A stretch of DNA of 64,000 nucleotides, taken from the NCBI GenBank assembly GCA_030018135.1, contig JASEGJ010000003.1:7633-71632 (forward strand), read 5' to 3'. Of this stretch, positions 17,294 through 56,079 are shown piece after piece. The notes under the pieces were generated by a model. The model saw only the letters and a list, made by a program, of their open reading frames with translations, searched no databases and was not told the DNA's origin. The translations under genes were made by a program, and so were the position numbers. The stretch's first letter is position 1. Each line of letters begins with the position of its first letter. The stretch is from Candidatus Hodarchaeaceae archaeon (GTDB taxonomy: Archaea > Hadarchaeota > Hadarchaeia > Hadarchaeales > Hadarchaeaceae).

Positions 17294-17920
17294 ATGTTTT
17301 CCTACGTATTCTTGCTCGGGCGCCCCGGCTCAGGCAAGTCGGCCGTCTATAAGATGTTTGTCGAGCGCATGCTTCGAGAGGGGCTGGCAAGCGAGGTGAT
17401 GCGCATCGACGACTTCCCGATCCTGAAGCAGATCCTCGACGAGGACGTTGAGTTCAAGCGCCACGTTAGGAAGGAGGGCGGGTTCGAGGTCACGGATTTC
17501 TCCATACTCGACGATGTGCTTAAGCGCATCAACGGCCAGCTCAAGGAATTGCAAAAGCCCGGCAGGGTGATATTTGTCGAGTTCTCGCGCGATAGCTACG
17601 CCAATGCGCTAGGAAATTTTGACGATGGGGTGCTTAGTCGCTCGCTCTTGGTTTACATCTACTGCCCATTCGAGGTCTGCTTGGAGAGGAACGCGAGAAG
17701 GTTCAAAGAAGGGCTCAAGGATGTTGATGATCACATCGTACCCCGCGACCTCATGGAAAAGTACTACCGCTATGACGACTACGAGGAGCTTTTTTTGAAA
17801 TCGGAGAATGAACTGAAAGCACGAGCCCCCGCCCCGATCGTGGTAGTCAAGAACAACGTTGAGGGGTTAGATCATCTCAAATTGGAAATCGAGAAGGTAG
17901 TAACTGCTTTGAAAATTTAG
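17294..17920 (+). CDS. P-loop kinase of unknown specificity (AAA_33/zeta-toxin-like)
   Basis: Walker A GRPGSGKS near the N-terminus. Start chosen at MFSYVFLLG rather than the ORF-track upstream Met. Confidence 0.5.
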   Translation: MFSYVFLLGRPGSGKSAVYKMFVERMLREGLASEVMRIDDFPILKQILDEDVEFKRHVRKEGGFEVTDFSILDDVLKRINGQLKELQKPGRVIFVEFSRDSYANALGNFDDGVLSRSLLVYIYCPFEVCLERNARRFKEGLKDVDDHIVPRDLMEKYYRYDDYEELFLKSENELKARAPAPIVVVKNNVEGLDHLKLEIEKVVTALKI

Positions 17921-21869: not shown

Positions 21870-22103
21870 TTGAGAAAATTACTCGTTGAGCTAAGAGCGG
21901 GCGAGAGTGGCATCATTGCGGGCGTCACAGGCGGGTTTGGGTTGCAACGGCGTTTGGCAACTTTAGGGATAAAAATCAACAAAAAAGTCCGAATGATCAC
22001 TGCTCAACCGTTCAGGGGCCCTGTTGTCGTGGAAGTCGATGGGGCCCGTGTAGCAATCGGCATGGGAATAGCTTGGAAGGTCCTTGTGGAGGTAACAAAG
22101 TGA
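21870..22103 (+). CDS. feoA: Ferrous iron transport protein A
   Basis: 77 aa SH3-like FeoA. TTG start with AAGGAG RBS. Confidence 0.8.
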   Translation: MRKLLVELRAGESGIIAGVTGGFGLQRRLATLGIKINKKVRMITAQPFRGPVVVEVDGARVAIGMGIAWKVLVEVTK

Positions 22104-23806
22104 GAATACTCCTCATGGGAAATCCAAACGTCGGTAAAAGTGTCGTTTTTTCAAGGCTGACAGGTACCAGCGTGGTCGTGTCCAATTACCCCGGTACCAC
22201 AGTTGAGTTCACGAAAGGCACGATGAAGATTGGGGAAAAGAAAGCAGACGTAATCGACGTTCCGGGGACCTATACCTTGGAGCCAACCACAAGGGCAGAA
22301 GAAGTCGCAGTTGAGATGCTTAAAGAAGGCGATGTGGTCATCGATATCGTCGACGCCACAAACTTGGAGAGAAACCTTTACTTAACGCTTCAGCTATTGG
22401 AAAAGAAAGTGCCTGTGATCGTGGCCCTCAACTTGTCGGACGAGGCCAAGCACAAAGGTATAACTATCGATGTCAAGAAACTCGAGAAATTATTAGACGT
22501 CCCAGTCGTTCCCACCGTTGCCATCACTGGAGAGGGGCTCAAAAAACTCGTTTCTCGCCTGCCTGAAGCCAAAGCACATGCTTACAGACACACCGACGAA
22601 CAAAGATGGGAAAAAGTGGGCAAGATCGTTGAAGATGTCCAATCAGTAGCGCATCGACATCATACTTTGGCAGAAAGGCTAGGGGATGCAACCGTTAGGC
22701 CCTTAACTGGGATCCCAATTGCCATTGGAATAGTTACACTAATGTTCCTTGTGATACGATTCATCGGCGAGGGATTGATTGCCAATGTGTTTGATCCAGC
22801 GTTTGGGGCCTATGAACCCGTAGCGATGAGGATGAGCGAAGCATTAGGTTCTGGCGGCCTCCTCCATAATATCGTAATCGGAAACCTGATCGATGGCGGG
22901 ATAGACTTTACGCAGTCCATGGGCCTATTGACTACCGGGATTTTTGTCCCGTTCGCAATGGTTCTACCTTACGTGTTTGCGTTTTACTTGGTGCTGGGAT
23001 TTCTCGAGGATAGCGGCTACTTACCAAGGCTAGGTGTACTTGTCGATAGTGGAATGCACAGGGTAGGGATGCACGGCCTTGCGGTAGTGCCGATGTTGCT
23101 TGGCTTAGGGTGCAATGTCCCGGGAGCTCTTTCTTCCAGAATTCTCGAAACTCAAAGGCAAAGGTTCATTGCCCTCACGCTCATGGGGATAGCAGTCCCA
23201 TGCATGGCCCAGCTCGCCATAATCTTCGGGTTGGTAGGTCCCTATGGCATCGGAGCTCTGGCGATGGTCTTTGCAACACTTTTTGTGGTATGGGTGGTGA
23301 TTGGGCTCTTGCTCAACAAGGTTTTGGCGGGCGAAAGTCCGGAGATGTTCACAGAAATTCCGCCTTACCGCATGCCGTATTGGGGGGCAACATTGAAAAA
23401 GCTGTGGATGAGGATAAGGCACTTTTTGACCACGGCGATCCCCTTCGTGCTGCTGGGCGTACTTCTTGTGAATGTATTGTATACTTTGGGGATAATCGAC
23501 TTCATGGGTGATATCGCATCCCCAGTTGTTGTTGGGTTGCTTGGGTTACCGCCGGCTGCGGCCGGAGCATTGATAATAGGATTTCTGCGCAAAGATGTGG
23601 CTGTAGGGATGTTGCTGCCCCTCGGCCTGAGCATGCAACAGCTGGTAGTGGCCAGCGTGGTACTGGCGATGTACTTCCCCTGTGTCGCAACCTTCGCCAT
23701 CCTCTTCAAAGAGTTCGGGATAAAAGGCACGATAAAATCTACTTCAATTATGATCGGAATGGCGTTGCTAGTGGGGACTTTACTTAGACTTGTACTCGGT
23801 GTGTGA
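22100..23806 (+). CDS. feoB: Ferrous iron transport protein B (GTPase plus permease)
   Basis: G1 motif [11 protein letters not shown] start overlapping the feoA stop (GTGA), with GGAGGT RBS. Long polytopic C-terminal half. Confidence 0.9.
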
Positions 23807-23807
23807 G

Positions 23808-24236
23808 ATGCCATCGGTAAGTATCGACGAATATCTGGAAGTCCTGTGGACTCTACGGGTCGATAGAAATCAGCCCGGAAAGATAAGGGATGTCGCAAAG
23901 TTATTAAAAATCGCGCCGCCAAGTGTGTTCCAAATGTTCGAAAAAATGAGAATGCAGGGGCTGATTAAATATGACAAGCGCTCTGGGGCAGATTTCACAC
24001 GAAAGGGAAAGAGGAGGGCCAGACATATTGTGAGAAGTCACAAGCTTGTGGAAAAACTCCTCGTTGACATCGTGGGCGTTAAACTCGGTGAGGTGGAACG
24101 TCCCGCTTGCGGCGCCGAGCATTATCTGCCAGAAGAAGTGGCTGATGCGATATGTATTTATTTGAAACATCCGCGCGAGTGTCCACACGGAGATCCGATT
24201 CCGAAGGGAAAATGTTGTCCTCAGAGGAAAGTTTGA
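23808..24236 (+). CDS. DtxR/MntR-family metal-dependent transcriptional repressor
   Basis: HTH region SIDEYLEVLW..IRDVAKLLKIAPPSVFQMFEKM. ATG one nt after the feoB stop, in frame with the ORF-track 23790 start. Confidence 0.75.
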   Translation: MPSVSIDEYLEVLWTLRVDRNQPGKIRDVAKLLKIAPPSVFQMFEKMRMQGLIKYDKRSGADFTRKGKRRARHIVRSHKLVEKLLVDIVGVKLGEVERPACGAEHYLPEEVADAICIYLKHPRECPHGDPIPKGKCCPQRKV

Positions 24237-24350
24237 GGGCGCCGATATAGGACCATTGCACAAAAACCTATATTGGCACGAGTAATTCTCTTCTATGGGG
24301 TTAGCTTGTACCAATGGCGTCGCGGTCGGCGAGGGGGACCTGGAAGGCCG

Positions 24351-24653
24351 ATGAAACCCAGGTTCTTGAGCTTCAGGCCCGAAGCGATAACGTTTATGCC
24401 ATCCGCTCCAATAGGGCCACCAATCGCGGGCGAGCCGATCTACATGACTTATGACGAGTACGAGGCCTTTCGCCTGATTTATCACGAAGGGCTGAACCAG
24501 GAGGAGGCCGCCAAGCGGATGAAAATTTCGCGTGGGACGGTGTGGCGCTGCTTAGAGAGCGCGAGGAATAAGGTTGCCTGCATGCTCGTCGAACGCCGCC
24601 CGCTCGTGGTCACGTCTGCACCTCCTCGACCTCCAGAGGAGACAGGCACTTGA
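24351..24653 (+). CDS. DUF134 (UPF0251) family putative DNA-binding protein
   Basis: MKPRFLSFRPEAITFMP N-terminus and sigma-70 region-4-like HTH LNQEEAAKRMKISRGTVWRCLESARNKVA. GGAAGG RBS upstream. The ORF-track TTG start at 24273 was rejected. Confidence 0.65.
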   Translation: MKPRFLSFRPEAITFMPSAPIGPPIAGEPIYMTYDEYEAFRLIYHEGLNQEEAAKRMKISRGTVWRCLESARNKVACMLVERRPLVVTSAPPRPPEETGT

Positions 24654-25489
24654 GCCAAGTCGATAGAATACGGCTCACGGTTTTGGTTGACGATTCCAAG
24701 AACCCGATCAGACCCGAACTCACAGCCAAGCACGGGTTGTCCTTCTTCATCGAATTGAAAGCTGGCAGACACACAACTAGTCTGTTGCTGGATACCGGGC
24801 CGTCCGCCGATGTTGTCCTACAAAACGCTCGGAAGCTCGACATCGATTTGAGGAAGGTGGATTCTATTTTCCTGAGCCACGGACATTACGACCATACCGG
24901 TGGGCTCTTGGGCGTCCTAAAACACATCGGCAAAAAGGTACCTGTGATAGCCCACCCAGAGGCGCTTGAGCCAAAATTTGCGAGGAGGAAGAAGCGTCTC
25001 AAAAAGGCCGGCATCCCTTTTCAAGTTTCAGAGTTGCAGAGATCGAGCGGCATCTTAACTCTAAAACGGGGGTCGACTTCCGTAGCGCCCGGAGTTTGGG
25101 TGAGCGGGGAAATCAAAAGAGTCAGCCCATTTGAAGAGGTAAAGGGGTTCAAGGTTATGAGGCGGGGCAAACTCGTAGAGGATTACATGCCGGATGATCA
25201 GGCTCTTTTCGTGAGGGTCAAGGGCAGGGGGCTGGTGGTCATCACGGGTTGCGCTCACGCGGGGTTGATAAACACGATCAAGCAGGCGCAAAAGGTAACG
25301 GGTTCGAGCGGCGTGTATGCGGTCGTTGGTGGGTTTCACCTAGCTGGAGCAAGTGCGGGAAGGATAAATGCAACCATTGAGGAGCTCCAGAAAGCTGGCG
25401 TGAAAGCTGTCATGCCATGTCACTGCACGGGAAAGAAGGCAATCACAAAGTTCTCGAAGGTCTTTGGAAAAAAAGTGCAACCAGCTTAG
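24650..25489 (+). CDS. Metallo-beta-lactamase fold hydrolase
   Basis: HxHxDH motif (LSHGHYDHTGG). Overlaps the DUF134 stop by 4 nt. Confidence 0.7.
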   Translation: MSQVDRIRLTVLVDDSKNPIRPELTAKHGLSFFIELKAGRHTTSLLLDTGPSADVVLQNARKLDIDLRKVDSIFLSHGHYDHTGGLLGVLKHIGKKVPVIAHPEALEPKFARRKKRLKKAGIPFQVSELQRSSGILTLKRGSTSVAPGVWVSGEIKRVSPFEEVKGFKVMRRGKLVEDYMPDDQALFVRVKGRGLVVITGCAHAGLINTIKQAQKVTGSSGVYAVVGGFHLAGASAGRINATIEELQKAGVKAVMPCHCTGKKAITKFSKVFGKKVQPA

Positions 25490-25518
25490 AACAGGTAATG
25501 TAATCATTCTAAGCACCA

Positions 25519-25532
25519 AAAAGCTTTTATAG
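25519..25532 (+). promoter_or_regulatory. Candidate BRE/TATA (aaaagcTTTTATAG) for the downstream operon
   Basis: AT-rich 88-bp gap; TATA-like element ~45 nt upstream of the ATG at 25578. Confidence 0.3.
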
Positions 25533-25577
25533 AATTATGTGCAATAGCACAAATAGTACAAATAGAGGTGGTAACGA

Positions 25578-25841
25578 ATGTGGTGGCCGGGTTTCGGCTG
25601 GGGTCGAGGCTGGTTTGGACCTTGGCCAGGCAGAGGGCCTTTTAGCTATCTGCCCCCATGGCAGAGACCCGGGTGGTGGTTTGGTCGAGGAGCGTGCTGG
25701 TGGCTCTTCGGACCTTGGGCGTGGTCGATGTTCGGATACCCATGGAGTGGATACCTAGGAACCTACGGGTTTGCTCCGTACGCGATGCCACAGTACCCCT
25801 ACCAAAGATACGTACCATACCCTTATCCGGGATACTGGTAA
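25578..25841 (+). CDS. Trp/Gly/Pro/Tyr-rich small protein (87 aa, 14 Trp)
   Basis: Starts MWWPGFGWGRGWF; SD GAGGTGG 7 nt upstream. A paralogous MWWP start opens the next gene. Confidence 0.5.
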   Translation: MWWPGFGWGRGWFGPWPGRGPFSYLPPWQRPGWWFGRGACWWLFGPWAWSMFGYPWSGYLGTYGFAPYAMPQYPYQRYVPYPYPGYW

Positions 25842-25864
25842 ACAAACAAAAGGAGGTCAAAAGT

Positions 25865-26182
25865 ATGTGGTGGCCTAGAGGTTGGAGATGTTGGTGGTGG
25901 TATATGAATCCATACATGTACCCACCCTACCTACCATACGTGCAAGCGCCGCAGCAACCCTCGCAACCTGCGCCGCAACCCACGCAGCCCGCAACAGTAC
26001 CTTACTACCCGCTCCCACCGTTCATGCCTCCTCCACCGACGCCCGAGCAAGAGATCGAAGCGCTGGAGGCATACAAAAGCGAGCTCGAAGAGGAACTCAA
26101 GGGCATCGAGGCGAGGATAAAAGAGTTGAGGGAGTCCCTAGGCAAAGGATCCAGCGGTCAACCATCTGAAACCGGAAAGTGA
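25865..26182 (+). CDS. DUF5320-like small protein: Trp/Tyr/Pro-rich N-terminus plus C-terminal coiled coil
   Basis: ATG at 25865 with AAAGGAGGT SD, internal to the ORF-track 174-aa frame. MWWPRGWRCWWWYMNPYMYPPY..., then EQEIEALEAYKSELEEELKGIEARIKELRESLGK. Confidence 0.55.
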   Translation: MWWPRGWRCWWWYMNPYMYPPYLPYVQAPQQPSQPAPQPTQPATVPYYPLPPFMPPPPTPEQEIEALEAYKSELEEELKGIEARIKELRESLGKGSSGQPSETGK

Positions 26183-26186
26183 TAAA

Positions 26187-26552
26187 TTGGGGCTTAAAGT
26201 GGCAGTTGCCACGAAGGGGCTCAAAAGCCTAGAGGATGAAGTATCAGATGTCTTCGGCAGAGCTCGAGCCTTTGCAATAGTCGAGACCGAGGGAGGTCAG
26301 ATCAAGAACGCAAAAGCTGTGGAGAATCCCGCAGCTTCATACGAGTACGGAGCTGGACCGATAGTCACAAAAATGCTCGCCGACATGGGAGTCGAGGTCG
26401 TGATCGCTGGCGAGTTCGGTATGGGGGTGTCAGTTCTCCTCAAGGATAAGAATATCCGTGCAGTCAAAGTTAGAGCTGGAACAAATGTCTGCCGGGCCGT
26501 GGATAGTGAATTAAGTGAGAAACAAACTTCGGAGCGATTGTCATGCGGGTAG
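26187..26552 (+). CDS. NifX/NafY/NifB-C-like protein (dinitrogenase FeMo-cofactor-binding domain, PF02579-like), single domain
   Basis: KVAVATKG...FGRARAFAIVETEGG...MGVEVVIAGEFG fits the Nitro_FeMo-Co fold pattern. Confidence 0.7.
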   Translation: MGLKVAVATKGLKSLEDEVSDVFGRARAFAIVETEGGQIKNAKAVENPAASYEYGAGPIVTKMLADMGVEVVIAGEFGMGVSVLLKDKNIRAVKVRAGTNVCRAVDSELSEKQTSERLSCG

Positions 26553-27421
26553 CCATCCCATCAAATAAGCCTGGCGGACTGGATGCTGCGGTCTCCCCCC
26601 ATTTTGGTCGTTGTGATGTATTCACGATAGTTAAAATTGAAAATGGCAAGGTAGTGGATGTAAGCGTTGTTGAAAATCGAGGGACACATTTCGGCTTTGG
26701 AGCAACACCTGCGGAAATCTTGGTTTCGAACGGCGTAGATGCGGTATTAGCTCAGGGTATGGGACCTAAGGCCCTGCAGCTCTTGGCACAAAGCGGTATC
26801 ACAACGTACATGGCCTCGGCTCAAACGGTTGGAGAGGCTGTGCGCGAGCTGGTCGAGGATAAGGTCAGGCTGGCTACAATCGAGGAAGCGTGCAAAGAAG
26901 CAAGAGAACCTTGGTTGCCTCCGGCCCCTATCATGCCCGGTGTGGGGATGGGGATGGGCCGTGGAATGGGAAGGGGGGGGAGAATGATGGGTCCCTCTCC
27001 TTATGGTCCCGCTTACCCACCGATGATCCCCCCAACGCCGTATCCTCCACAAATGCCGAAACCTTCTCCCCCACCAACAGGCCGCTTTAAAGTGGGCGTC
27101 GCAAGCCAGGGGCCAGGGGGACTCGACGACATGGTATCGCCGATCTTTGGCAGGTGCCCGAGCTTTACCATCGTCGAGATCGAAGGGAGAGAAATTAAAA
27201 ATGTAAAGGTGATACCGAATCAATTCGTTTCTACGCCTCGCGGTGTGGGAATCGCTGTGGTCCAGATGCTAGCAAGCGAAGGGGTGAAATTTATTTTGGC
27301 CGGACGATTTGGCCCTTGGGCATCCTCAACTTCTAGTCAATTCGATATCCAAATGGTCATGGTCCCGCCCGGCGTGAGGATTAGGGACGCTATCAACCAA
27401 TACATCATCGGCTCACGCTAG
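26543..27421 (+). CDS. Tandem two-domain NifX-like protein joined by a Pro/Gly/Met-rich low-complexity linker
   Basis: Domain 1 MRVAIPS..HFGRCDVFTIVKIENGKV..; linker PGVGMGMGRGMGRGGRMMGPSPYGPAYPPMIPPTPYPPQMPKPSPPP; domain 2 FKVGVASQG..IFGRCPSFTIVEIEGREI... Confidence 0.7.
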   Translation: MRVAIPSNKPGGLDAAVSPHFGRCDVFTIVKIENGKVVDVSVVENRGTHFGFGATPAEILVSNGVDAVLAQGMGPKALQLLAQSGITTYMASAQTVGEAVRELVEDKVRLATIEEACKEAREPWLPPAPIMPGVGMGMGRGMGRGGRMMGPSPYGPAYPPMIPPTPYPPQMPKPSPPPTGRFKVGVASQGPGGLDDMVSPIFGRCPSFTIVEIEGREIKNVKVIPNQFVSTPRGVGIAVVQMLASEGVKFILAGRFGPWASSTSSQFDIQMVMVPPGVRIRDAINQYIIGSR

Positions 27422-27422
27422 G

Positions 27423-28328
27423 GTGCAGCGATTGAAGGAAATTGTGATCGCTAGTGGAAAGGGTGGAGTCGGTAAGACTACGGTCGCTGCATCGCTTGCA
27501 GTTTTTTTGGCCAAAGCCGGGACGAAAATCGTTGCAGCTGATGCAGATGTTGATGCACCGGATCTCTTGTTGGCGCTGGGTGGCGGAAAGACAATTTCCT
27601 CAACCGAGATCGAAGCTTCAGAAAAAGCGGTGGTCGACGGGTCGAAATGCACTGGATGTGGTAATTGCGTCAGCGCTTGCCCGTTCGGCGCGATTGTGGT
27701 GCAGAATCGTCGACCAACCGTTGTGCGGCTCATGTGTGAGGGTTGCGGCGTGTGCGAGGTTGTCTGCCCCGTCAACGCAGTTGAGGTGAAAAAGGCGGTG
27801 ACGGGCACCCTGAAAATCGAGGATACTAAGTACGGATTCCCGTTGGTGACTGGGTACCTGAGGCTGGGCGAACACAATTCGGGGCACCTCGTAGCGAGCG
27901 TAAAAAAATCCGGGCGGAAGACGGCTGAGGATTTGGGGGCAAGGGCGCTCGTGGTCGACGCAGCGCCGGGTATAGGTTGCCCAGTGATCGCTTCGATCTC
28001 GGGAGCCAGCTATGTTATTGCTGTTACCGAGCCGACGCCTGCCGCCAAGCGGGACCTAGAACGCTTGGTCAAAATCATAAAACACTTCGGGGTCTCGGCG
28101 GGAGTGGTGATAAACAAGGCGAACCTCTCGGACGACTTCAGGGATGCGCTTGAGGACTGGGTAAAGCATGTGCTAGGTTATCAAATTTTAGGCGAGATCC
28201 CCATCGACTACGAAGTTGTTAAAGCTCTGGTGAACATGGTGCCGGTCACTGAGTTTAATCCAAACGCTGAAGCATCGAAGATCTTGACTGCGATAGCCAA
28301 ACGCGTGCGAGATGAGGTTTTACTATGA
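27423..28328 (+). CDS. MinD/ParA-superfamily P-loop ATPase with inserted 2x[4Fe-4S] ferredoxin domain (COG1149-type)
   Basis: Walker A SGKGGVGKTT; CTGCGNCVSACPFGAI and CEGCGVCEVVCPVNAV inserts. GTG start 1 nt after the previous stop. Confidence 0.8.
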   Translation: MQRLKEIVIASGKGGVGKTTVAASLAVFLAKAGTKIVAADADVDAPDLLLALGGGKTISSTEIEASEKAVVDGSKCTGCGNCVSACPFGAIVVQNRRPTVVRLMCEGCGVCEVVCPVNAVEVKKAVTGTLKIEDTKYGFPLVTGYLRLGEHNSGHLVASVKKSGRKTAEDLGARALVVDAAPGIGCPVIASISGASYVIAVTEPTPAAKRDLERLVKIIKHFGVSAGVVINKANLSDDFRDALEDWVKHVLGYQILGEIPIDYEVVKALVNMVPVTEFNPNAEASKILTAIAKRVRDEVLL

Positions 28329-29278
28329 AACCCGGCGGGGAGGTGTCAGCGAAAGTGCTCAGGAAAAAGAGCGTGAGCGTGCCCATGATAGCAGTCACCG
28401 GCGGAAAGGGCGGCACGGGCAAAACCACGGTTGCGGTGAATTTGGCCGTGGGGTTGAGTTTGAAAGGCTCTAAGGTCATGCTGGTCGATGCCGACGTTGA
28501 CTGCCCCTGTTGCGCGATGTTGCTCGGAACCGAACTGAATGCTAGCGAGGAAGTCAGAGTATTTAAGCCAGTGATCGATGCGGCGAAGTGCACTGGATGT
28601 GGAAGGTGTGTGGAAGTCTGTCGGGAACATGCATTGGTAGGGCTTGAGGGGCAAGTCCCATCACTTTTCGAAGAACTTTGCTCCGGGTGTAAAGCGTGTC
28701 AGCTCGTTTGCGAAGCCGGCGCCATGAAGAGCGGTCAGAAAGTTCTCGGTACCATCTACGTCGCAGATTCAAATGGGATTAAACTGGTGGTGGGCGAACT
28801 CAAACCGACCGAGCCGAGGTCGCCGATCGTGGCGCGCGCGACCATGCTCAAAGCCGCTGAGGAGCTTAAGCTTGACAAACACGATATCGTAATCGTGGAC
28901 ACCGCTCCGGGGATTCATAACGTGGTGGCTCAAGCCCTTTGGGAAGCCGACCTAGCGCTGGCTGTGACTGAGCCGACCCCACTCGGAGCTCACGATCTGG
29001 GATTCATGTTAGACCTCACCGAGGAACTGGGGTTGCCGACCGAGGTCATCCTGAACAAGGCCGACATCCCAAGCGGTTTGAAGGATAAGGTGGTGAAGAC
29101 GAGCCGTGATCGGGGAGTTAAAATCGTTGCGGAGATACCGATGGACGAAGAGCTGTTGCGCTCCTACGTTTCGGGTGAGCCGCTCGTGAGAAAATCACCC
29201 AAGAGCCCAGCTGCAGCTGCAATGTTAACTCTGGTTCCGCACATTCGTGAAATGTTTGTAAAGGGAGGTGAAACCTGA
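28325..29278 (+). CDS. Second MinD-type ATPase with ferredoxin insert (paralog of the previous gene)
   Basis: TGGKGGTGKTT; CTGCGRCVEVCREHAL plus a second Cys cluster. Overlaps the previous gene by 4 nt. Confidence 0.8.
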   Translation: MKPGGEVSAKVLRKKSVSVPMIAVTGGKGGTGKTTVAVNLAVGLSLKGSKVMLVDADVDCPCCAMLLGTELNASEEVRVFKPVIDAAKCTGCGRCVEVCREHALVGLEGQVPSLFEELCSGCKACQLVCEAGAMKSGQKVLGTIYVADSNGIKLVVGELKPTEPRSPIVARATMLKAAEELKLDKHDIVIVDTAPGIHNVVAQALWEADLALAVTEPTPLGAHDLGFMLDLTEELGLPTEVILNKADIPSGLKDKVVKTSRDRGVKIVAEIPMDEELLRSYVSGEPLVRKSPKSPAAAAMLTLVPHIREMFVKGGET

Positions 29279-29487
29279 TGGCGCAACCACCCACCCCACC
29301 ACCGCTGCCAACTAAAAAGTTTCAATGTTTTGCCTGCGGGAACATCATAGAGGTGCCTCAGGGGATACCCAAGCCACCAGCGTGCTCTAGGTGCGGCGCT
29401 CCGGCGGTAATGATTCATCGTGTTGACAAGGGGCCGCCGGGTGGAAGACGCGGCGCTGCGGGCCCACCTTGGGCTCAGCAAGGCTGA
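29278..29487 (+). CDS. Small zinc-ribbon protein (CxxC...CxxC), Pro-rich termini
   Basis: 69 aa. CFACG...CSRCG. Start overlaps the upstream stop (ATGA) with AGGGAGGTG SD. Confidence 0.45.
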   Translation: MAQPPTPPPLPTKKFQCFACGNIIEVPQGIPKPPACSRCGAPAVMIHRVDKGPPGGRRGAAGPPWAQQG

Positions 29488-29572
29488 TTTAGTTGGGCCG
29501 TGGAACCAAAATCACTGAAAGAAGGGATAGATGTTTACGGCAAGGAGAAACTACAAAAATTGGTGAATAAGA

Positions 29573-30421
29573 GTGAGGATCTATTTAGATTGCATCCCGT
29601 GCTTCGTGAGGCAGGCTTTGGAAGCGAGCAAGATGGCTACGAGGAACAAAAACAAACAAGAAAAAGTCTTGAAGAAAGTTTTATCTGAGATTGGGAAAAC
29701 TTCGTTAAAAAACAAGATACCATCTGATATTGCTCATAAAGTTCACCGCATAATCAGAAAAATGACAGGGAATAACGATCCTTACAAGAAATTGAAAGAC
29801 CAGTGCAACAGAAAAGCGCTGAGGATGTACCCGGACCTTAAACAAAAGGTCGCTGGGTCTAAAGATAGATTGCTGACGGCGACAAAACTCGCCATAGCTG
29901 GAAACATTATCGATTTTGGGCCCGGTTCTGAGTTCAATCTGGAGAAAACAATAGAGGAAGTTCTAGTTCAGGATTTCGCTATAAATCATTTTAATCGGCT
30001 TAGGGAAGCGTTGCAAAAATCTGAAAAGATTGTATATTTAGGAGACAATGCAGGTGAGATAGTTTTCGATCGGATTCTCTTGGAAGAATTGAAGGATAAA
30101 GAGATCACATTTGTGGTCAAAGGAGGGCCCATCATAAATGATGCAACGGTCGAAGATGCAAAATTCGCTGGCATAGACAAAATTGCTGAGATTAAAACAA
30201 TAAGCAATGGGGAGCCTGGCACGGGGCCGAAGAGAAATTCAAAGGAATTTACAAATTTCTTAAAAAGCGCCGATGTCGTGATTAGCAAAGGGCAGGGAAA
30301 CTATGAAGCCTTAAGCGAAGTGAACGCGAACATATTCTTCTTGCTCAAGGTGAAGTGCCCAACGATTGCTGGGGATATCGGAGTTAAAATTGGTGGTATC
30401 GTCGTAAAACAATCGTGTTAG
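29573..30421 (+). CDS. DUF89 family protein (ARMT1-like damage-control phosphatase / methyltransferase)
   Basis: N-terminal CIPCFVRQ and C-terminal ISKGQGNYE motifs. GTG start. Gene is markedly AT-rich. Confidence 0.65.
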   Translation: MRIYLDCIPCFVRQALEASKMATRNKNKQEKVLKKVLSEIGKTSLKNKIPSDIAHKVHRIIRKMTGNNDPYKKLKDQCNRKALRMYPDLKQKVAGSKDRLLTATKLAIAGNIIDFGPGSEFNLEKTIEEVLVQDFAINHFNRLREALQKSEKIVYLGDNAGEIVFDRILLEELKDKEITFVVKGGPIINDATVEDAKFAGIDKIAEIKTISNGEPGTGPKRNSKEFTNFLKSADVVISKGQGNYEALSEVNANIFFLLKVKCPTIAGDIGVKIGGIVVKQSC

Positions 30422-30728
30422 TTGGTTGAGGCGATCCCAAGATGTCGGAGACCAAGCTCGTGAGCGCCTGCCTTTTTGGGGTCAACTGTAGTACGACGGT
30501 CAAAACAACTTTAACGAGAAAGACAAATGCTTGAAGGTCAGGCGGCAGCGCTCCGGCAGCAATTGGATCAATCAAGAAGAGGCTTGAAGAGCTCAGCAAA
30601 ATGTAGGGCCCAATCGTCTTATCAATGAGTCCGACAACAGGGGTGAAAAAGTGCTACGATAAGTGTGTAGCCTCATCTTGAATCAGCTGGATACACATTT
30701 ATTTTGTGCAATCGCCAGAAAAAAATGA

Positions 30729-31586
30729 ATGGTGGGGCAAGTAGAAGAAAGGATGAAAGAAATACAGGAACAGGAAAGGCGCCTCAAAATACGGATGGCC
30801 AAAATCAAGTATAAACTGGCGATACTGAGTGGAAAGGGCGGGGTCGGCAAGAGTACCATCACCGCTAATTTAGCCATTGCTTTTGCACGCAAGGGTCACA
30901 AGGTGGGTGTTTTGGATGTTGATATTCACGGCCCGAGTATTCCCAAAATACTCGGCATGAGGGGGCAGGAGTTGACTGCAGGGCGGCTTGAAGGTGTGGG
31001 CATCTTTCCGGCCAAAGGTCCGCTCGACATCAAAGTCATCTCCATGGATTTCCTCCTCCCAGATGACGAAACCCCGGTTATTTGGCGCGGTCCGATGAAG
31101 ATGGGTGCGATCAGGCAATTTTTGGCGGATGTGGCGTGGGGTGACTTGGATTTTCTGTTTATTGATGTCCCGCCAGGAACTGGGGACGAGCCGCTCAGCT
31201 TGATGCAATTGTTGCCAGACATCACGGGTGTCATCGTAGTAACTGCACCATCCGAGGTTTCTCAGATCGTCGTCAAGAGAGCAGTAGGATTTACAAGGGA
31301 GCTGCACGTGCCGGTGGTTGGCATCGTAGAGAACATGAGTGGGTTCGTTTGTCCAAAATGTGGTGCAGAATTCGACATTTTAGGAACTAGTGGTGGGCAA
31401 AAAATATCAGAGCAACTTGGCATCCCATTTTTGGGCAAGATTCCAATCGATCAAAAGATATGTGAGGATTCAGACAGGGGAACGCCTTTCGTCATCGAGC
31501 GTGCTGAAACTCCGGCGGCTAAGGCCTTCATGCGAGTGGTTGATAAAGTGGAGGGGTATTTAAAACAACTGGGAGTGCGGGCTTGA
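30729..31586 (+). CDS. apbC: Mrp/NBP35/ApbC-family Fe-S cluster carrier ATPase
   Basis: ILSGKGGVGKST; CPKCG CxxC near C-terminus; WGDLDFLFIDVPPGTGDE. Confidence 0.85.
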   Translation: MVGQVEERMKEIQEQERRLKIRMAKIKYKLAILSGKGGVGKSTITANLAIAFARKGHKVGVLDVDIHGPSIPKILGMRGQELTAGRLEGVGIFPAKGPLDIKVISMDFLLPDDETPVIWRGPMKMGAIRQFLADVAWGDLDFLFIDVPPGTGDEPLSLMQLLPDITGVIVVTAPSEVSQIVVKRAVGFTRELHVPVVGIVENMSGFVCPKCGAEFDILGTSGGQKISEQLGIPFLGKIPIDQKICEDSDRGTPFVIERAETPAAKAFMRVVDKVEGYLKQLGVRA

Positions 31587-32341
31587 TCGTCGACGAGTTA
31601 TTGGGTCTGGTCGGGGAGCGGAGAAGCCAGCTAGAAGACCTGACGCTCTCGAGGGTATGCGTGAGCCTCTGCTATACCGCGGTGATGCTCGATAACGGCT
31701 ACGTTGGGCTCTGCCACACGCCTACCGAGGACATTGCACACACTCATTGGGGCCGCAGGCGGGACTTCCACGGCTTCAAGGCCTTGGAAATCACGCGCCT
31801 GGCGAATTCGCTTGACATGATTGAGAGGACCGTTGGCATAGCGGCATTGAACGCCCTCTCACAGTACCTGATGGACTCTGAAGGTTATGAGCGGCAGTTT
31901 GGAATGGACGCCTTTAATGCGATAGATGTAAAGGAGGAAGACAGCGCCGCGGTGGTTGGGTACATGAGGCCCCTAGTCGGGAAGCTGAGGGCAAAGGCCC
32001 GCGAAGTCCACGTTTTCGAACGCAACCCCCAATTGAGGGGGGATGCCCTGCCTGATACTTTTGTCGACTCGATATTGCCGAAAGCGGATATCGTGGTTAT
32101 AAGCGGGTCGAGTTTAGTCAATGGAACCCTTGATAGGTTGCTGGAGCTATCCAAAAGAACTAGATTCGTGATTTTTGCAGGGCCAACGGCCAGCACTTTA
32201 CCAGAGCCTCTTTTCAAGCGGGGTGTAAGCGTCGTGGCGGGCGTTCGCGCGAAAGGTCCTAAGGTGATGGGTGCAGTAGCCGAGGCCAAACCATTCGTGG
32301 CATTCAAACAGCTTGTGGAGAAGTATATTTTAAGGAGATGA
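31583..32341 (+). CDS. DUF4213/DUF364 protein (putative metal-chelating Rossmann-like domain)
   Basis: N-terminal VGLCHTPTED; C-terminal DIVVISGSSLVNGTLDRLLEL. Overlaps the apbC stop. Confidence 0.6.
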   Translation: MIVDELLGLVGERRSQLEDLTLSRVCVSLCYTAVMLDNGYVGLCHTPTEDIAHTHWGRRRDFHGFKALEITRLANSLDMIERTVGIAALNALSQYLMDSEGYERQFGMDAFNAIDVKEEDSAAVVGYMRPLVGKLRAKAREVHVFERNPQLRGDALPDTFVDSILPKADIVVISGSSLVNGTLDRLLELSKRTRFVIFAGPTASTLPEPLFKRGVSVVAGVRAKGPKVMGAVAEAKPFVAFKQLVEKYILRR

Positions 32342-53729: not shown

Positions 53730-54164
53730 ATGGGAAGGATCGCGTACGTGGGTGAAGGCTGTACCGGATGCAAAATCTGCTCTGTTGCCTGTGCTTATGC
53801 GCACGATCGGACATTTGGCGTCAAGGCGGGCCGCATTTGGGTCGTCAAGGAGGAGCCACTTACAGATTATCCCGTTGTTTGCGTCCAGTGCGCTAAGCCC
53901 CGGTGCCAAGAAGTTTGTCCGGTGGCGGCCATCAGCCGCGTTAACGATTTGGTGCTTGTCGACGAAAATGCTTGCATAGGCTGTGGCGCGTGCGTCGAGG
54001 CCTGTCCGTTTGGTGCGATAATTTTGCATCCCGCGAAGCGCATCGCGATTAAATGCGACCTCTGCGGCGGCAATGAGCCACAATGCGTAAAGTTTTGCCC
54101 AGCGGACGTATTGAAACTCAAAGAGCTCGCAGCCGTGGCGCAGGAGAAGCGGACTAAGGGGTGA
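53730..54164 (+). CDS. Four-cluster [4Fe-4S] ferredoxin-like electron-transfer subunit of AOR
   Basis: Four CxxCxxCxxxCP-type motifs in 144 aa; immediately upstream of aor. Confidence 0.8.
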   Translation: MGRIAYVGEGCTGCKICSVACAYAHDRTFGVKAGRIWVVKEEPLTDYPVVCVQCAKPRCQEVCPVAAISRVNDLVLVDENACIGCGACVEACPFGAIILHPAKRIAIKCDLCGGNEPQCVKFCPADVLKLKELAAVAQEKRTKG

Positions 54165-54168
54165 TATC

Positions 54169-56079
54169 TTGCCATATCCGTTCGGCGGCTACATGGGACA
54201 AATCCTGCGCGTGGATTTGACGAGACAAAAGTCCGCCGTGGAGCAACTGCCGAGCAGGCTTGTGCGCGACTATATCGGCGGCACAGGCTTTGCAGCTCGC
54301 ATTTTGTTCGATGAGCTCAAGTCCGGGATGGACGCCCTCGATCCGGAAAACAGGCTAATCTTCGCGACCGGTCCGCTGGTGGGCACGCTCTGGCCAACGT
54401 CTGGCAGGTGGGCGGTTTACGCGAAATCTCCTCTGACAGATATTTGGGGGGAGTCGCACTGCGGAGGGTTCTTCGGCGCGGAGCTGAAGTTCGCTGGCTA
54501 CGATATGATCATAGTGAATGGGCGAGCGAACAAACCCGTTTATTTGTGGATCGACGACGGAAGGATCGAGATCCTGTCCGCCAAAAACCTCTGGAACAGA
54601 AACACGGCCGAAACCACGGACGCGATTCGAGAGCAACACGGCGATCGGGAGATCGAGGTGGCTTGCATCGGTCCAGCGGGTGAGAACCTCGTGCGCTTCG
54701 CTTGCATAATGAACAATTATCAAGACGCGGCTGGCAGGGCAGGCTTGGGGGCGGTGATGGGCTCGAAGCGCCTAAAGGCGGTTGCCGTGAGGGGTTCGCA
54801 AAGCGTCAGGGTGGCGGATGATGATAAGTTTATGGAGCTGGTTGAGGATGCCCACGAGCGCGTGCTCAAGCAACCTCAAGCTCGGGAGATGACCAAGTAT
54901 GGCACGCCGTTGCTTGTCGCATACAAATCAGAAATTGGGGAACTCCCCACGCGAAACCATCAAACGGGCATATTTGCGGGCGCCGGTAAACTTAAGGCAG
55001 ACACGATCCGCGCGCAGTACTTCGCCAAAACGCGGTCATGCTTTGGCTGCCGCATAATGTGCAAAAAGGTAAACCGCATCCCCGAGGGCCCGTATAAGGG
55101 GACGATATCCGGCGGGCCGGAATATGAGTCAATTTTTTCGCTCGGCACCAATTGCGGCATAGATGATTTTGGCGCGATACATAAGGCGAACCAGCTTTGC
55201 AACCTGTACGGTCTCGACGCCATCTCAGCGGGCTGCGTCGTAGCATGGCTGATGGAGTGCTATGAACGTGGGCTGATCAACCGTGGGCAGTGCGATGGCC
55301 TCGACCCGACGTGGGGCAACCATGGGGCGATGGTGACGCTAATCGAGAAAATTGCAAAACGCGAGGGGATCGGCGATACCCTCGCGGAGGGCAGCTATCG
55401 CGCGGCGAAGAAGCTGGGCAAGGGCGCCGAATACGTCATGCACGTCAAAAAACTGGAAATATCGGGTCAGGATGGCCGCACCCATCGAAGCGTCGCGCTT
55501 ACGCACGCCATATCCGTGCGCGGCGCCGACCATCTGCGCTCGCTCGTCACCGTGGATCAGCTCGGCTACGAGGAGACGGCGGCGAAGCGCTACGGCAAGG
55601 ACAAGTTACCGGAGATATGCGATCCCTACGTGGAGAAATACAAGGCCGCGGCGGTCAAGGACACCGAGGACGCGTTCGCGATACGCGATAGCTTGATCGT
55701 CTGTTGGTACTCCTGCGGTTGGCCGCCCATCTTCTGGATGCCTGACTTTGCGGCGGTTGCGGCGGCGGCAACTGGCATAAAGGAGTTCGGCAGGCTCGAG
55801 GAGCTTTACCGCATAGCGCAGCGCATATGCAATCTGCGGCGGGCCTTCAACGTGCGCGAGGGGCTGGATCGAAGGCACGACGCGCTGCCCAAGCGTTTCA
55901 CCCACGAACCCATGCCCGAAGGGCCTGGCAAGGGGCAGGTGGCGAACCTTGAAATAATGTTGCGCGAATATTACAAATTGAGGGGCTGGGGCGAAAATGG
56001 CATACCTACGAGGCGGACGTTGGGTGAGCTTGGGTTGAGCGATGTGGCGGCCGAGCTGGAGCGCTTGGGGAGGTTGTGA
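54169..56079 (+). CDS. aor: Tungsten-containing aldehyde:ferredoxin oxidoreductase (AOR family)
   Basis: 636 aa. AOR N-terminal domain pattern; conserved AOR-family Cys/Asp motifs. Confidence 0.9.
   Translation: MPYPFGGYMGQILRVDLTRQKSAVEQLPSRLVRDYIGGTGFAARILFDELKSGMDALDPENRLIFATGPLVGTLWPTSGRWAVYAKSPLTDIWGESHCGGFFGAELKFAGYDMIIVNGRANKPVYLWIDDGRIEILSAKNLWNRNTAETTDAIREQHGDREIEVACIGPAGENLVRFACIMNNYQDAAGRAGLGAVMGSKRLKAVAVRGSQSVRVADDDKFMELVEDAHERVLKQPQAREMTKYGTPLLVAYKSEIGELPTRNHQTGIFAGAGKLKADTIRAQYFAKTRSCFGCRIMCKKVNRIPEGPYKGTISGGPEYESIFSLGTNCGIDDFGAIHKANQLCNLYGLDAISAGCVVAWLMECYERGLINRGQCDGLDPTWGNHGAMVTLIEKIAKREGIGDTLAEGSYRAAKKLGKGAEYVMHVKKLEISGQDGRTHRSVALTHAISVRGADHLRSLVTVDQLGYEETAAKRYGKDKLPEICDPYVEKYKAAAVKDTEDAFAIRDSLIVCWYSCGWPPIFWMPDFAAVAAAATGIKEFGRLEELYRIAQRICNLRRAFNVREGLDRRHDALPKRFTHEPMPEGPGKGQVANLEIMLREYYKLRGWGENGIPTRRTLGELGLSDVAAELERLGRL

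Follow-up and report, generated by a model that had tools for sequence, protein, structure and literature searches.

The window, the whole stretch of 64,000 nucleotides analysed here from contig JASEGJ010000003.1 of a Candidatus Hodarchaeaceae archaeon, contains two small tandem open reading frames (ORFs), ORF1 and ORF2, which lie directly upstream of two NifX-like genes, at the head of their operon as an earlier note on this DNA had placed them, and are preceded by a putative archaeal promoter with a palindromic candidate operator (Table 1). Related loci and proteins are designated below by L and P numbers, respectively.

ORF1 encodes 87 residues (MWWPGFGWGRGWFGPWPGRGPFSYLPPWQRPGWWFGRGACWWLFGPWAWSMFGYPWSGYLGTYGFAPYAMPQYPYQRYVPYPYPGYW, as translated), of which 14 are Trp, 11 Tyr, 7 Phe, 15 Pro, 16 Gly, 5 Arg and one Cys, reproducing the Trp count and the Tyr/Pro/Gly richness that had first drawn attention to it. 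Trp, Tyr, Phe, Pro and Gly together account for 72% of the protein, and Trp alone for 16%, versus 0.5% in 11 neighbouring genes. Asp, Glu and Lys are absent, the net charge is +5, the isoelectric point (pI) is 9.6 and the C-terminal residue is Trp. ORF2 (pI 4.9) begins with MWWPRGWRCWWWYMNPYMYPPY at an ATG at 25865, one base before the position implied by the earlier note (25866).

Coding status and annotation of the pair

Comparative evidence indicates that both ORFs are real genes under purifying selection. Relative to the orthologous tandem pair of a related Hadesarchaeon (L002), the ratio of nonsynonymous to synonymous substitution rates (dN/dS) is 0.22 for ORF1 (dS 1.2) and 0.18 for ORF2 (dS 0.70), while the neighbouring NifX-like gene gives 0.12. 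Homologues form 299 clusters for ORF1 (E ≤ 0.01) and 28 clusters for ORF2, and each ORF has the strong Shine-Dalgarno (SD) sequence that the earlier note had ascribed to it. Neither ORF contains a tandem DNA repeat (Tandem Repeats Finder) or an Rfam match (E ≤ 1), so an RNA or repeat artefact can be rejected. The earlier note had also suggested a check of codon usage; this could not tell the three frames apart, synonymous bias being weak in this genome, and it speaks neither for nor against coding.

The deposited annotation holds a different gene model. NCBI record MDI6819612.1, named 'DUF5320 domain-containing protein', is a 174-aa ORF (25658–26182) that starts 207 nt too early relative to ORF2 and overlaps ORF1 in another frame, so that ORF1 is unannotated in the source genome; neither ORF1 nor the 105-aa ORF2 was found in a collection of 15 billion proteins. 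The suggestion that ORF2 starts inside a longer spurious frame agrees with the relatives, since P0123, P0128, P0130, P0136 and P0137 start exactly at MWWPRG and the N-terminal extensions of the long calls P0121, P0122, P0124, P0127 and P0138 are mutually unrelated. Over-extended ORF2 calls also occur in the relatives P0122, P0124, P0127, P0138 and L005. That ORF1 is merely an open frame that arose by chance in G-rich DNA, preceding a longer ORF2, would agree with the deposited 174-aa call and with the lack of frame discrimination by codon usage, but is extremely improbable and is refuted by the comparative data, namely the 299 homologue clusters with invariant residues, the dN/dS of 0.22 at a dS of 1.2, an SD of its own together with a conserved promoter and operator, and the lack of conservation in the long ORF2 extensions.

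A conserved motif and a split DUF5320 architecture

An alignment of ORF1 with 19 relatives from several phyla reveals a 31-aa motif at residues 14–44, GPWPGRGPFSYLPPWQRPGW[LW][FY]GRGACWWLF, with 16 invariant and 14 nearly invariant columns, so that ORF1 is not the pattern-less low-complexity protein it had been taken for. In some ORF1-type proteins a CxRFPWLPRWWW element replaces GRGACWW (L002 7646–7978, P0109). Library scans gave no Pfam or NCBIfam match for ORF1, with no match to DUF5320 (PF17253) even at E ≤ 10; PF02579 likewise has no match in ORF1 or ORF2, and the NCBIfam scan returned nothing relevant for either. An ORF1 profile searched against 1.84 billion representatives retrieved 106 clusters, nearly all of stand-alone proteins of 53–176 aa, and reached classical bacterial DUF5320 (P0229) only weakly.

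A scan with one genome per species found relatives encoded at 249 loci, the best 80 of which are all archaeal and distributed among Hadesarchaea, Bathyarchaeia, Nitrososphaeria, Thermoproteota, Methanomethylicota, Methanodesulfokora, Methanocellales, Thermoplasmata, Brockarchaeota and a Thermococci metagenome-assembled genome (MAG). They come in two forms. In some relatives the motif is followed by a coiled coil, and these pass the curated gathering cut-off of PF17253, set at a whole-protein score of 27 bits (P0004, 28.3; P0023, 28.5; P0051, 30.9; P0059, 32.3; P0146, 33.4 bits). Other relatives, like ORF1, carry a Tyr/Pro/Trp tail after the motif and have no Pfam or NCBIfam match. A precomputed PF17253 match is present in 43 of the best 120 ORF1 homologues, so the view that a Trp-rich N-terminus would be unusual for DUF5320 does not hold for archaeal members. 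ORF1 belongs to a large archaeal family that has no Pfam or NCBIfam model and shares its head with archaeal DUF5320 proteins.

The 56 distinct tail-type proteins consist of 17% Gly, 16% Trp, 16% Pro, 13% Tyr and 8% Arg, with almost no Asp, Glu or Lys and a net charge between +3 and +12. Exactly one Cys is found in 49 of them, and the last residue is Trp in 40, versus 5 of 341 background proteins from the same loci. A Cys lies no more than 16 residues past the motif core in 53 of the 56 tail-type proteins and in all 23 motif-plus-coiled-coil proteins. ORF1 is typical of this conserved family, as the 56 relatives share its composition, charge, Cys and terminal Trp.

The coiled-coil tail of ORF2, described as DUF5320-like in the earlier note, was recovered both by PF17253 (24.4 bits, E 6.7e-05, residues 52–88 against profile positions 63–99), just under the cut-off, and by AlphaFold2, which predicts a single long helix at residues 60–97 (predicted local distance difference test score, pLDDT, ~95) with the remainder at low confidence. 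Its heptad a/d positions, as read from the sequence, are I,L,.,L,L,I,I,L,L, and a profile search of the PDB returned generic coiled coils only (best E 0.049). ORF2 can thus be regarded as an N-terminally truncated, slightly sub-threshold DUF5320 member. In the alignment its head, WPRGWRCWWWY, matches the final part of the ORF1 motif (GWWFGRGACWWLF), of which it keeps about the last 11 residues.

The relation between the two genes can be read from a close relative, represented by two assemblies, in which a single 138-aa gene (L003 1481–1897, L004 1187–1603) joins the ORF1 N-terminus to the ORF2 body at the equivalent position, between the metallo-beta-lactamase (MBL)-fold and NifX-like genes. 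The DNA alignment explains the fusion by a clean deletion, in frame, from one GTGGTGG repeat to another (CCC GGG TGG TGG in ORF1, ATG TGG TGG CCT in ORF2), with flanks that align at 84% mean column identity among the window, L003, L005 and L006. Since the ORF2 head aligns to the motif end and the two genes are fused in frame in L003 and L004, ORF1 and ORF2 are two halves of the motif-plus-coiled-coil architecture, which the re-fusion in L003/L004 restores.

A DUF5320-type coiled-coil ORF lies within 6 kb at 45 of 57 tail-type loci, mostly directly downstream on the same strand, versus a separate one near only 3 of 24 motif-plus-coiled-coil genes. The tail-type and coiled-coil pair is present in Hadesarchaea, Bathyarchaeia, Nitrososphaeria and Thermoproteota, and the ORF2 architecture itself (W/R/Y head, Pro/Gln spacer, TPEEELxMLExYKxxLEEELKxVExRIKELR) recurs in the last three. 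The split arrangement is both ancient and widespread.

Compared with DUF5320 proteins as defined by Pfam, ORF2 has the C-terminal amphipathic coiled coil, which ORF1 lacks, and both have the Gly/Arg/aromatic N-terminal character; ORF1 shows N-terminal homology to bona fide members, its motif occurring in P0004, P0023, P0051, P0059 and P0146. Neither ORF reaches the 27-bit cut-off, ORF2 scoring 24.4 and ORF1 not matching. The differences are that the architecture is split over two genes, that ORF2 is without two thirds of the N-terminal motif, and that the archaeal motif WPGRGPFSYLPPWQRPGW is unlike the bacterial head MPRGDGTGP...GRGAGYC. DUF5320 genes are associated in genomes with DUF134, NifX-like and MinD-ferredoxin genes, although this is no formal criterion of the family, and the pair adjoins all three.

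Variations on the pair occur elsewhere. Four-gene arrays in Nitrososphaeria, Bathyarchaeia, Brockarchaeota and one Thermococci MAG (L010 8001–9777, L014 6670–8323, L017, L025, L064, L066) comprise, in order, an ORF1-type gene, a double-coiled-coil protein starting MGYRWRRMYYLTGLPGWMRFGYSPGW, a protein with MPYGMGPWGWF...RCRWFPWLPRWWWTGIYGP and a coiled coil, and a NifX-DUF5320 fusion. At Desulfurococcales-type loci the ORF1-type and ORF2-type genes are separated by a third small ORF (L059 8241–8483, L070 8230–8442), whose Tyr/Trp/Pro-rich start leads into a hydrophobic helical segment; a similar gap of 210–290 nt separates the pair genes in L053, L058, L071, L073, L075 and L084. NifX or MinD genes are often missing from the vicinity of such loci.

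Palindromic candidate operator and gene neighbourhood

The candidate operator, between the TATA-like box and the ORF1 SD, is the sole exact TGTGC-N4-GCACA in the window. Across about 1 Mb of related loci, a slightly relaxed form of the palindrome has 63 sites versus ~3.8 expected; an ORF1-family gene begins no more than 200 nt downstream of 54 of these, and another 3 precede a coiled-coil ORF. The distance from palindrome to start codon is 16–63 nt (median 41), and some promoters have two sites. TTTATA-like boxes adjoin the palindrome in most family promoters, as the TTTTATA box at 25525–25531 does for ORF1; the palindrome stands just before or after the TATA box, although this TATA-relative classification is crude and only indicative. 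A scan for bacterial-type promoters and terminators is uninformative for archaeal DNA. In this genome only, the leader is 9 nt longer, with ACAAATAGT inserted relative to L003, L005 and L006, and contains a 9-bp direct duplication (AATAGCACA x2.6) at 25543–25565, between operator and ORF1 SD.

One-mismatch palindromes at 17515, 40640, 43114 and 53790 are taken as chance, since their count matches the shuffle expectation (mean 1.67; 4 of 100 shuffles reached 5 matches) and the two inspected lie inside coding regions. The one at 53790–53803 falls within the ferredoxin coding region of a polyferredoxin-like gene followed by an aldehyde:ferredoxin oxidoreductase-type gene (53730–56079), and is probably fortuitous.

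Among the 36 loci with a site and full flanks, 27 have a DUF134 gene no more than 4 kb away, which in 12 is adjacent and divergent, and this proximity makes DUF134 the best candidate binder of the palindrome. More broadly, DUF134 neighbours 37 of 57 tail-type and 21 of 24 motif-plus-coiled-coil loci, NifX-like genes 30 and 17, and MinD-ferredoxin genes 25 and 15, respectively; these counts are lower bounds, as many contigs are short. The co-occurrence with NifX-like genes that the earlier note had proposed to look for is thus found.

Table 1 Coordinates of the gene pair, its control elements and the surrounding genes in the window
Feature	Position	Strand	Description
DUF134 helix-turn-helix protein	24273..24653	+	PF02001, 65.7 bits; candidate regulator at the palindrome
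Archaeal TFB recognition element (BRE)/TATA-like element	25516..25531	+	CCAAAAAGC-TTTTATA; putative promoter, identical in orthologous L003, L005, L006
14-bp palindrome	25538..25551		TGTGCAATAGCACA (consensus TGTGC-N4-GCACA); candidate operator
SD of ORF1	25565..25572	+	GAGGTGGT; from sequence; kept in L003, L005, L006
ORF1	25578..25841	+	87-aa Trp/Tyr/Gly/Pro/Arg-rich protein; conserved motif and aromatic tail; no Pfam/NCBIfam model
ORF1 conserved motif	25617..25709	+	GPWPGRGPFSYLPPWQRPGWWFGRGACWWLF; residues 14-44, from translation; Cys40 codon 25695-25697
Spurious 5' part of the 174-aa ORF2 model in the deposited record	25658..25864	+	overlaps ORF1 in another frame
SD of ORF2	25850..25857	+	AAGGAGGT; from sequence; kept in L005
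ORF2	25865..26182	+	105 aa; W/R/C head MWWPRGWRCWWWY, Pro/Gln/Tyr-rich spacer, DUF5320-type coiled-coil helix
ORF2 coiled-coil helix	26042..26155	+	residues 60-97; AlphaFold2, Pfam match, heptads
Two NifX-like (PF02579) genes	26187..27421	+	single-domain 26187-26552; double-domain 26543-27421, GMGMGRGMGRGG / Pro-rich linker
Two MinD/ParA ATPases	27423..29278	+	inserted 2x[4Fe-4S] ferredoxin domains (Orp3/Orp4-like)
Rest of the cluster	29278..32341	+	Zn-ribbon, ARMT1/DUF89 phosphatase, Mrp/NBP35 Fe-S carrier, DUF4213-DUF364

Upstream of the pair lie genes for FeoB, a DtxR-type repressor, the DUF134 protein and an MBL-fold protein. This string (22073–25489) is tightly packed, with overlaps at 23790/23806 and 24650/24653, which suggests that DUF134 is co-transcribed with the iron-uptake genes; in L001 and L002 the upstream order is DtxR-FeoA, FeoB, DUF134, MBL. 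Downstream, a DUF4213-DUF364 'putative heavy-metal chelation' protein (31583–32341) closes the cluster, which also encodes an ARMT1/DUF89 damage-control phosphatase (29573–30421), and both recur in the related loci L003, L005, L082, L037 and L015. The two domains of the double NifX-like protein are separated by a (GMGR)n / Pro-rich linker, whose length is polymorphic, given that L001 (8642–9583, 313 aa) and L002 (8642–9619, 325 aa), otherwise near-identical contigs, differ here by 12 residues of GMGMGR repeats.

DUF5320-type segments and NifX-like domains are also joined in single genes, in three ways. In the first, a NifX-like domain is followed by GMGRGMGRG and a DUF5320 coiled coil (L010 9199–9777, with PF02579 at 85.6 and PF17253 at 36.7 bits; also L012, L014, L025, L030, L037, L038, L050 and L066). 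In the second, an ORF2-like head and coiled coil are followed by a G/W/R linker and a NifX-like domain (L061, PF17253 27.9 bits; L020, L065, L048), and in the third an N-terminal GYGRGRG and poly-Pro segment precedes the NifX-like domain (L033, L042, L055, L058, L075).

The operon appears to be, by analogy, an archaeal counterpart of both the Desulfovibrio ORP cluster and Thermococcales issA. The ORP complex of Desulfovibrio vulgaris comprises Orp3, Orp4, Orp5, Orp8 and Orp9/MrpORP; MrpORP transfers Fe-S clusters to proteins of the complex in vitro and is located at the cell pole, the complex being linked to cell division, and a NifX-like ORP subunit holds a non-covalent [S2MoS2CuS2MoS2] cluster (PMC6345978). 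The window operon likewise encodes NifX-like proteins, a pair of MinD-type ATPases that contain 2x[4Fe-4S] motifs, and an Mrp/NBP35 carrier whose best NCBIfam match is MrpORP (NF041136) (348.8 bits against a 450-bit cut-off, over the Mrp domain only, positions 1–249 of 365). In contrast with the ORP system, the window Mrp has no fused NifX-like domain, control is by an archaeal TATA box and palindrome instead of sigma-54, and the five published ORP subunits include no small protein of DUF5320 type, which leaves ORF1 and ORF2 without a counterpart.

Likeness to IssA and candidate functions of the pair

IssA of Pyrococcus furiosus (PF2025, Q8TZG9), a thioferrate iron-sulfur storage protein that forms nanoparticles, consists of a NifX-like domain and a 70-aa tail in which a Pro-rich stretch is followed by a Gly-rich region of cationic and aromatic character, where W/G/R are conserved and the only Cys of the protein lies; the anionic thioferrate has been proposed to be wrapped by this tail (PMC5524996). 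To recover issA genes, the N-terminal peptide was derived from the published primer and a degenerate DNA pattern searched in metagenomes, the exact P. furiosus primer sequence having no match in metagenome contigs. Nine Thermococcales issA-type genes were obtained, which start with MKIAIPTNGGG and contain PVEEAIKVA, as the primers encode. In all nine promoters TGTGCATATGCACA occurs just after the TATA box, 32–44 nt before the ATG, with no second such site in any of the loci, and another NifX-like gene follows each issA. The window promoter has the arrangement that defines the proposed IssA regulon, TGTGC-N4-GCACA next to a TATA box and 16–63 nt upstream of the start. The order operator-ORF1-ORF2-NifX-like genes in the window can be compared with operator-issA (NifX-like domain plus tail)-NifX-like gene in Thermococcales.

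The nine IssA-type tails (for example YPAYGYGLGWGRGRGRGFGRGWGRGGRGWGARLGYCPWTGMPNRRNWFARYFGWW) contain 22% Gly, 16% Pro, 11% Arg, 9% Tyr and 7% Trp, with GWGRG and YP/YG repeats, one Cys, almost no acidic residues and a net charge of +7 to +13, and always end in GWW. They resemble the ORF1 family in being cationic, near acid-free and predicted disordered, in GWGRG repeats and a Tyr/Pro-rich stretch, and in the single Cys flanked by aromatics and the C-terminal Trp. They differ in segment order, in Trp content (7% versus 16% in ORF1), in the absence of the strict 31-aa motif, and in being carried on a NifX-like domain, while ORF1 and ORF2 are free-standing and the PF02579 domain that forms the N-terminus of IssA is absent from both and encoded by the next two genes. 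By the tail criteria of the IssA authors (pI ≥ 9, <5 Cys, ≥20% Gly in the C-terminal 40 residues; Vaccaro 2017), ORF1 lies within the limits for pI (9.6) and Cys (1) and falls short for Gly, with ~5 in its last 40 residues (~13%); ORF2, at pI 4.9, falls short for pI, and Gly in the last 40 residues is 5% for the first and 10% for the second NifX-like protein.

Composition of this kind, rich in Tyr, Trp, Arg, Gly and Pro and without acidic residues, drives multivalent cation-pi and pi-pi association. In this respect ORF1 resembles the FUS-type Tyr/Gly and RGG 'sticker-spacer' regions of eukaryotic condensate proteins, from which it differs in being short and prokaryotic and in its strictly conserved motif and Cys.

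We infer, with a probability of about 0.5, that ORF1 and ORF2 are separately encoded, non-catalytic, IssA-tail-like scaffold subunits for iron-sulfide handling, supplying as separate polypeptides what the C-terminal tail supplies within IssA. Under this model, transcription would start from the TATA box followed by the palindrome, to which DUF134 would bind to control the operon. A disordered Arg/aromatic/Gly/Pro segment with one thiol would act on anionic iron-sulfide species bound to the NifX-like domains by coating, nucleating or organising them, through contacts from Arg, aromatic residues and the single thiol. The coiled coil of ORF2 would oligomerise and tie several heads and carriers into a larger, multivalent assembly, while the loading or mobilisation of clusters would fall to the MinD-ferredoxin and Mrp ATPases. 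The gene context and the natural NifX-DUF5320 fusions are consistent with the scaffold or adaptor role for the metallocluster module that the earlier note had put forward.

Several observations weigh against this proposal. Homology between the ORF1 family and the IssA tail is not detectable, as hhalign gives a probability of 15.7% with one aligned column, and no NifX protein with the ORF1 motif as its tail occurs among the 1.84 billion representatives searched with the ORF1 profile; since the profile-profile comparison is negative, the resemblance is one of architecture and composition and not of demonstrable descent. The tight conservation of the 31-aa motif suggests a specific protein or ligand interface, more than a loose electrostatic wrap, and hence a specific binding partner. 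AlphaFold2, given a 20-sequence alignment, predicts no confident fold for ORF1 (pLDDT 48.8 overall, predicted template modelling score 0.18), with an aromatic helix at residues 33–51. At some Desulfurococcales loci the pair is retained even though neither a NifX nor a MinD gene occurs within 8 kb. The role of IssA itself is unsettled, given that thioferrate-like iron is still formed in its absence (PMC8219758). Finally, it is by adjacency that DUF134 is the likely regulator acting through the palindrome.

The pair could instead be regulatory partners, RGG-like proteins that bind nucleic acid or DUF134 as co-sensor or anti-repressor and so tune the regulon. Apart from the partner ORF, no neighbour is as frequent as DUF134 (58 of 81 loci), minimal arrangements of DUF134 with an ORF1-type and an ORF2-type gene exist (L084, L011, L081), the ORF1-type gene is the first after the operator, and a motif scan in Methanosarcina mazei flagged both DUF134 and DUF5320 proteins for a G-quadruplex-binding RG motif (PMC7565180). 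However, the G-quadruplex claim is no more than a prediction from a motif, the domains to which DUF5320 segments are fused are NifX-like and not DNA-binding, and the tail-type members have no recognisable nucleic-acid-binding fold, so that a regulatory role appears unlikely.

It also seems quite unlikely that ORF1 and ORF2 are membrane-interface anchors or localisation adaptors through whose Trp/Tyr-rich segments, lodged in the lipid interface, Mrp and the MinD-type ATPases would be brought to the membrane or the cell pole. The extreme Trp/Tyr/Phe content, the predicted aromatic helix, the terminal Trp of the family and the polar localisation of MrpORP with its link to cell division (PMC6345978) would all fit such a role, yet neither protein has a hydrophobic transmembrane segment or signal peptide, the high Gly/Pro content, positive charge and zero acidic residues resemble the soluble IssA tail, and the fusion partners are soluble NifX-like domains.

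A further alternative is that iron sulfide is not the ligand and that the pair binds another anionic metal-sulfide, for example thiomolybdate or thiotungstate as in an ORP-type Mo/Cu cluster. In its favour, the genes correspond to those for the ORP complex, in which the NifX-like subunit carries the Mo/Cu cluster (PMC6345978), and a tungsten-type aldehyde:ferredoxin oxidoreductase is encoded elsewhere in the window; this is very unlikely, however, in view of the FeoB and DtxR-type iron repressor genes immediately upstream, the operator common to issA, an iron-sulfur protein gene, and the absence of a molybdate or tungstate transporter from the cluster.

The split pair, its conservation, the operator common to issA and the NifX-DUF5320 fusions appear to be undescribed in the searchable literature, in which neither a functional study of DUF5320 or DUF134 nor the palindrome in a relevant context was found. 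A broader and doubtful possibility, put forward tentatively, is that a widespread and so far undescribed archaeal regulon exists in which a DUF134 repressor acting on TGTGC-N4-GCACA would control iron-sulfide mineral or cluster handling, with Thermococcales IssA as one lineage-specific version, and in which a new class of Trp-rich, acid-free, intrinsically disordered small proteins with a coiled-coil partner would form, as separate polypeptides, a general mineral-templating or condensate scaffold on NifX-like carriers.

Iron and sulfide storage, detoxification and traffic are poorly understood in anaerobic archaea, and IssA is the sole storage protein studied. The locus suggests that DUF5320, DUF134 and the ORP-like MinD and NifX-like genes constitute one functional unit, and that the principle of the IssA tail is far wider than IssA, often residing in free-standing small proteins that family models and annotation pipelines miss or mis-call. 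The operator common to issA and ORF1-family genes makes DUF134 a testable candidate regulator of an Fe-S regulon across many archaeal phyla. The composition that first attracted notice is a conserved, selectable trait, and such a scaffold, if real, would represent a prokaryotic, anaerobic analogue of biomineralisation matrix proteins.

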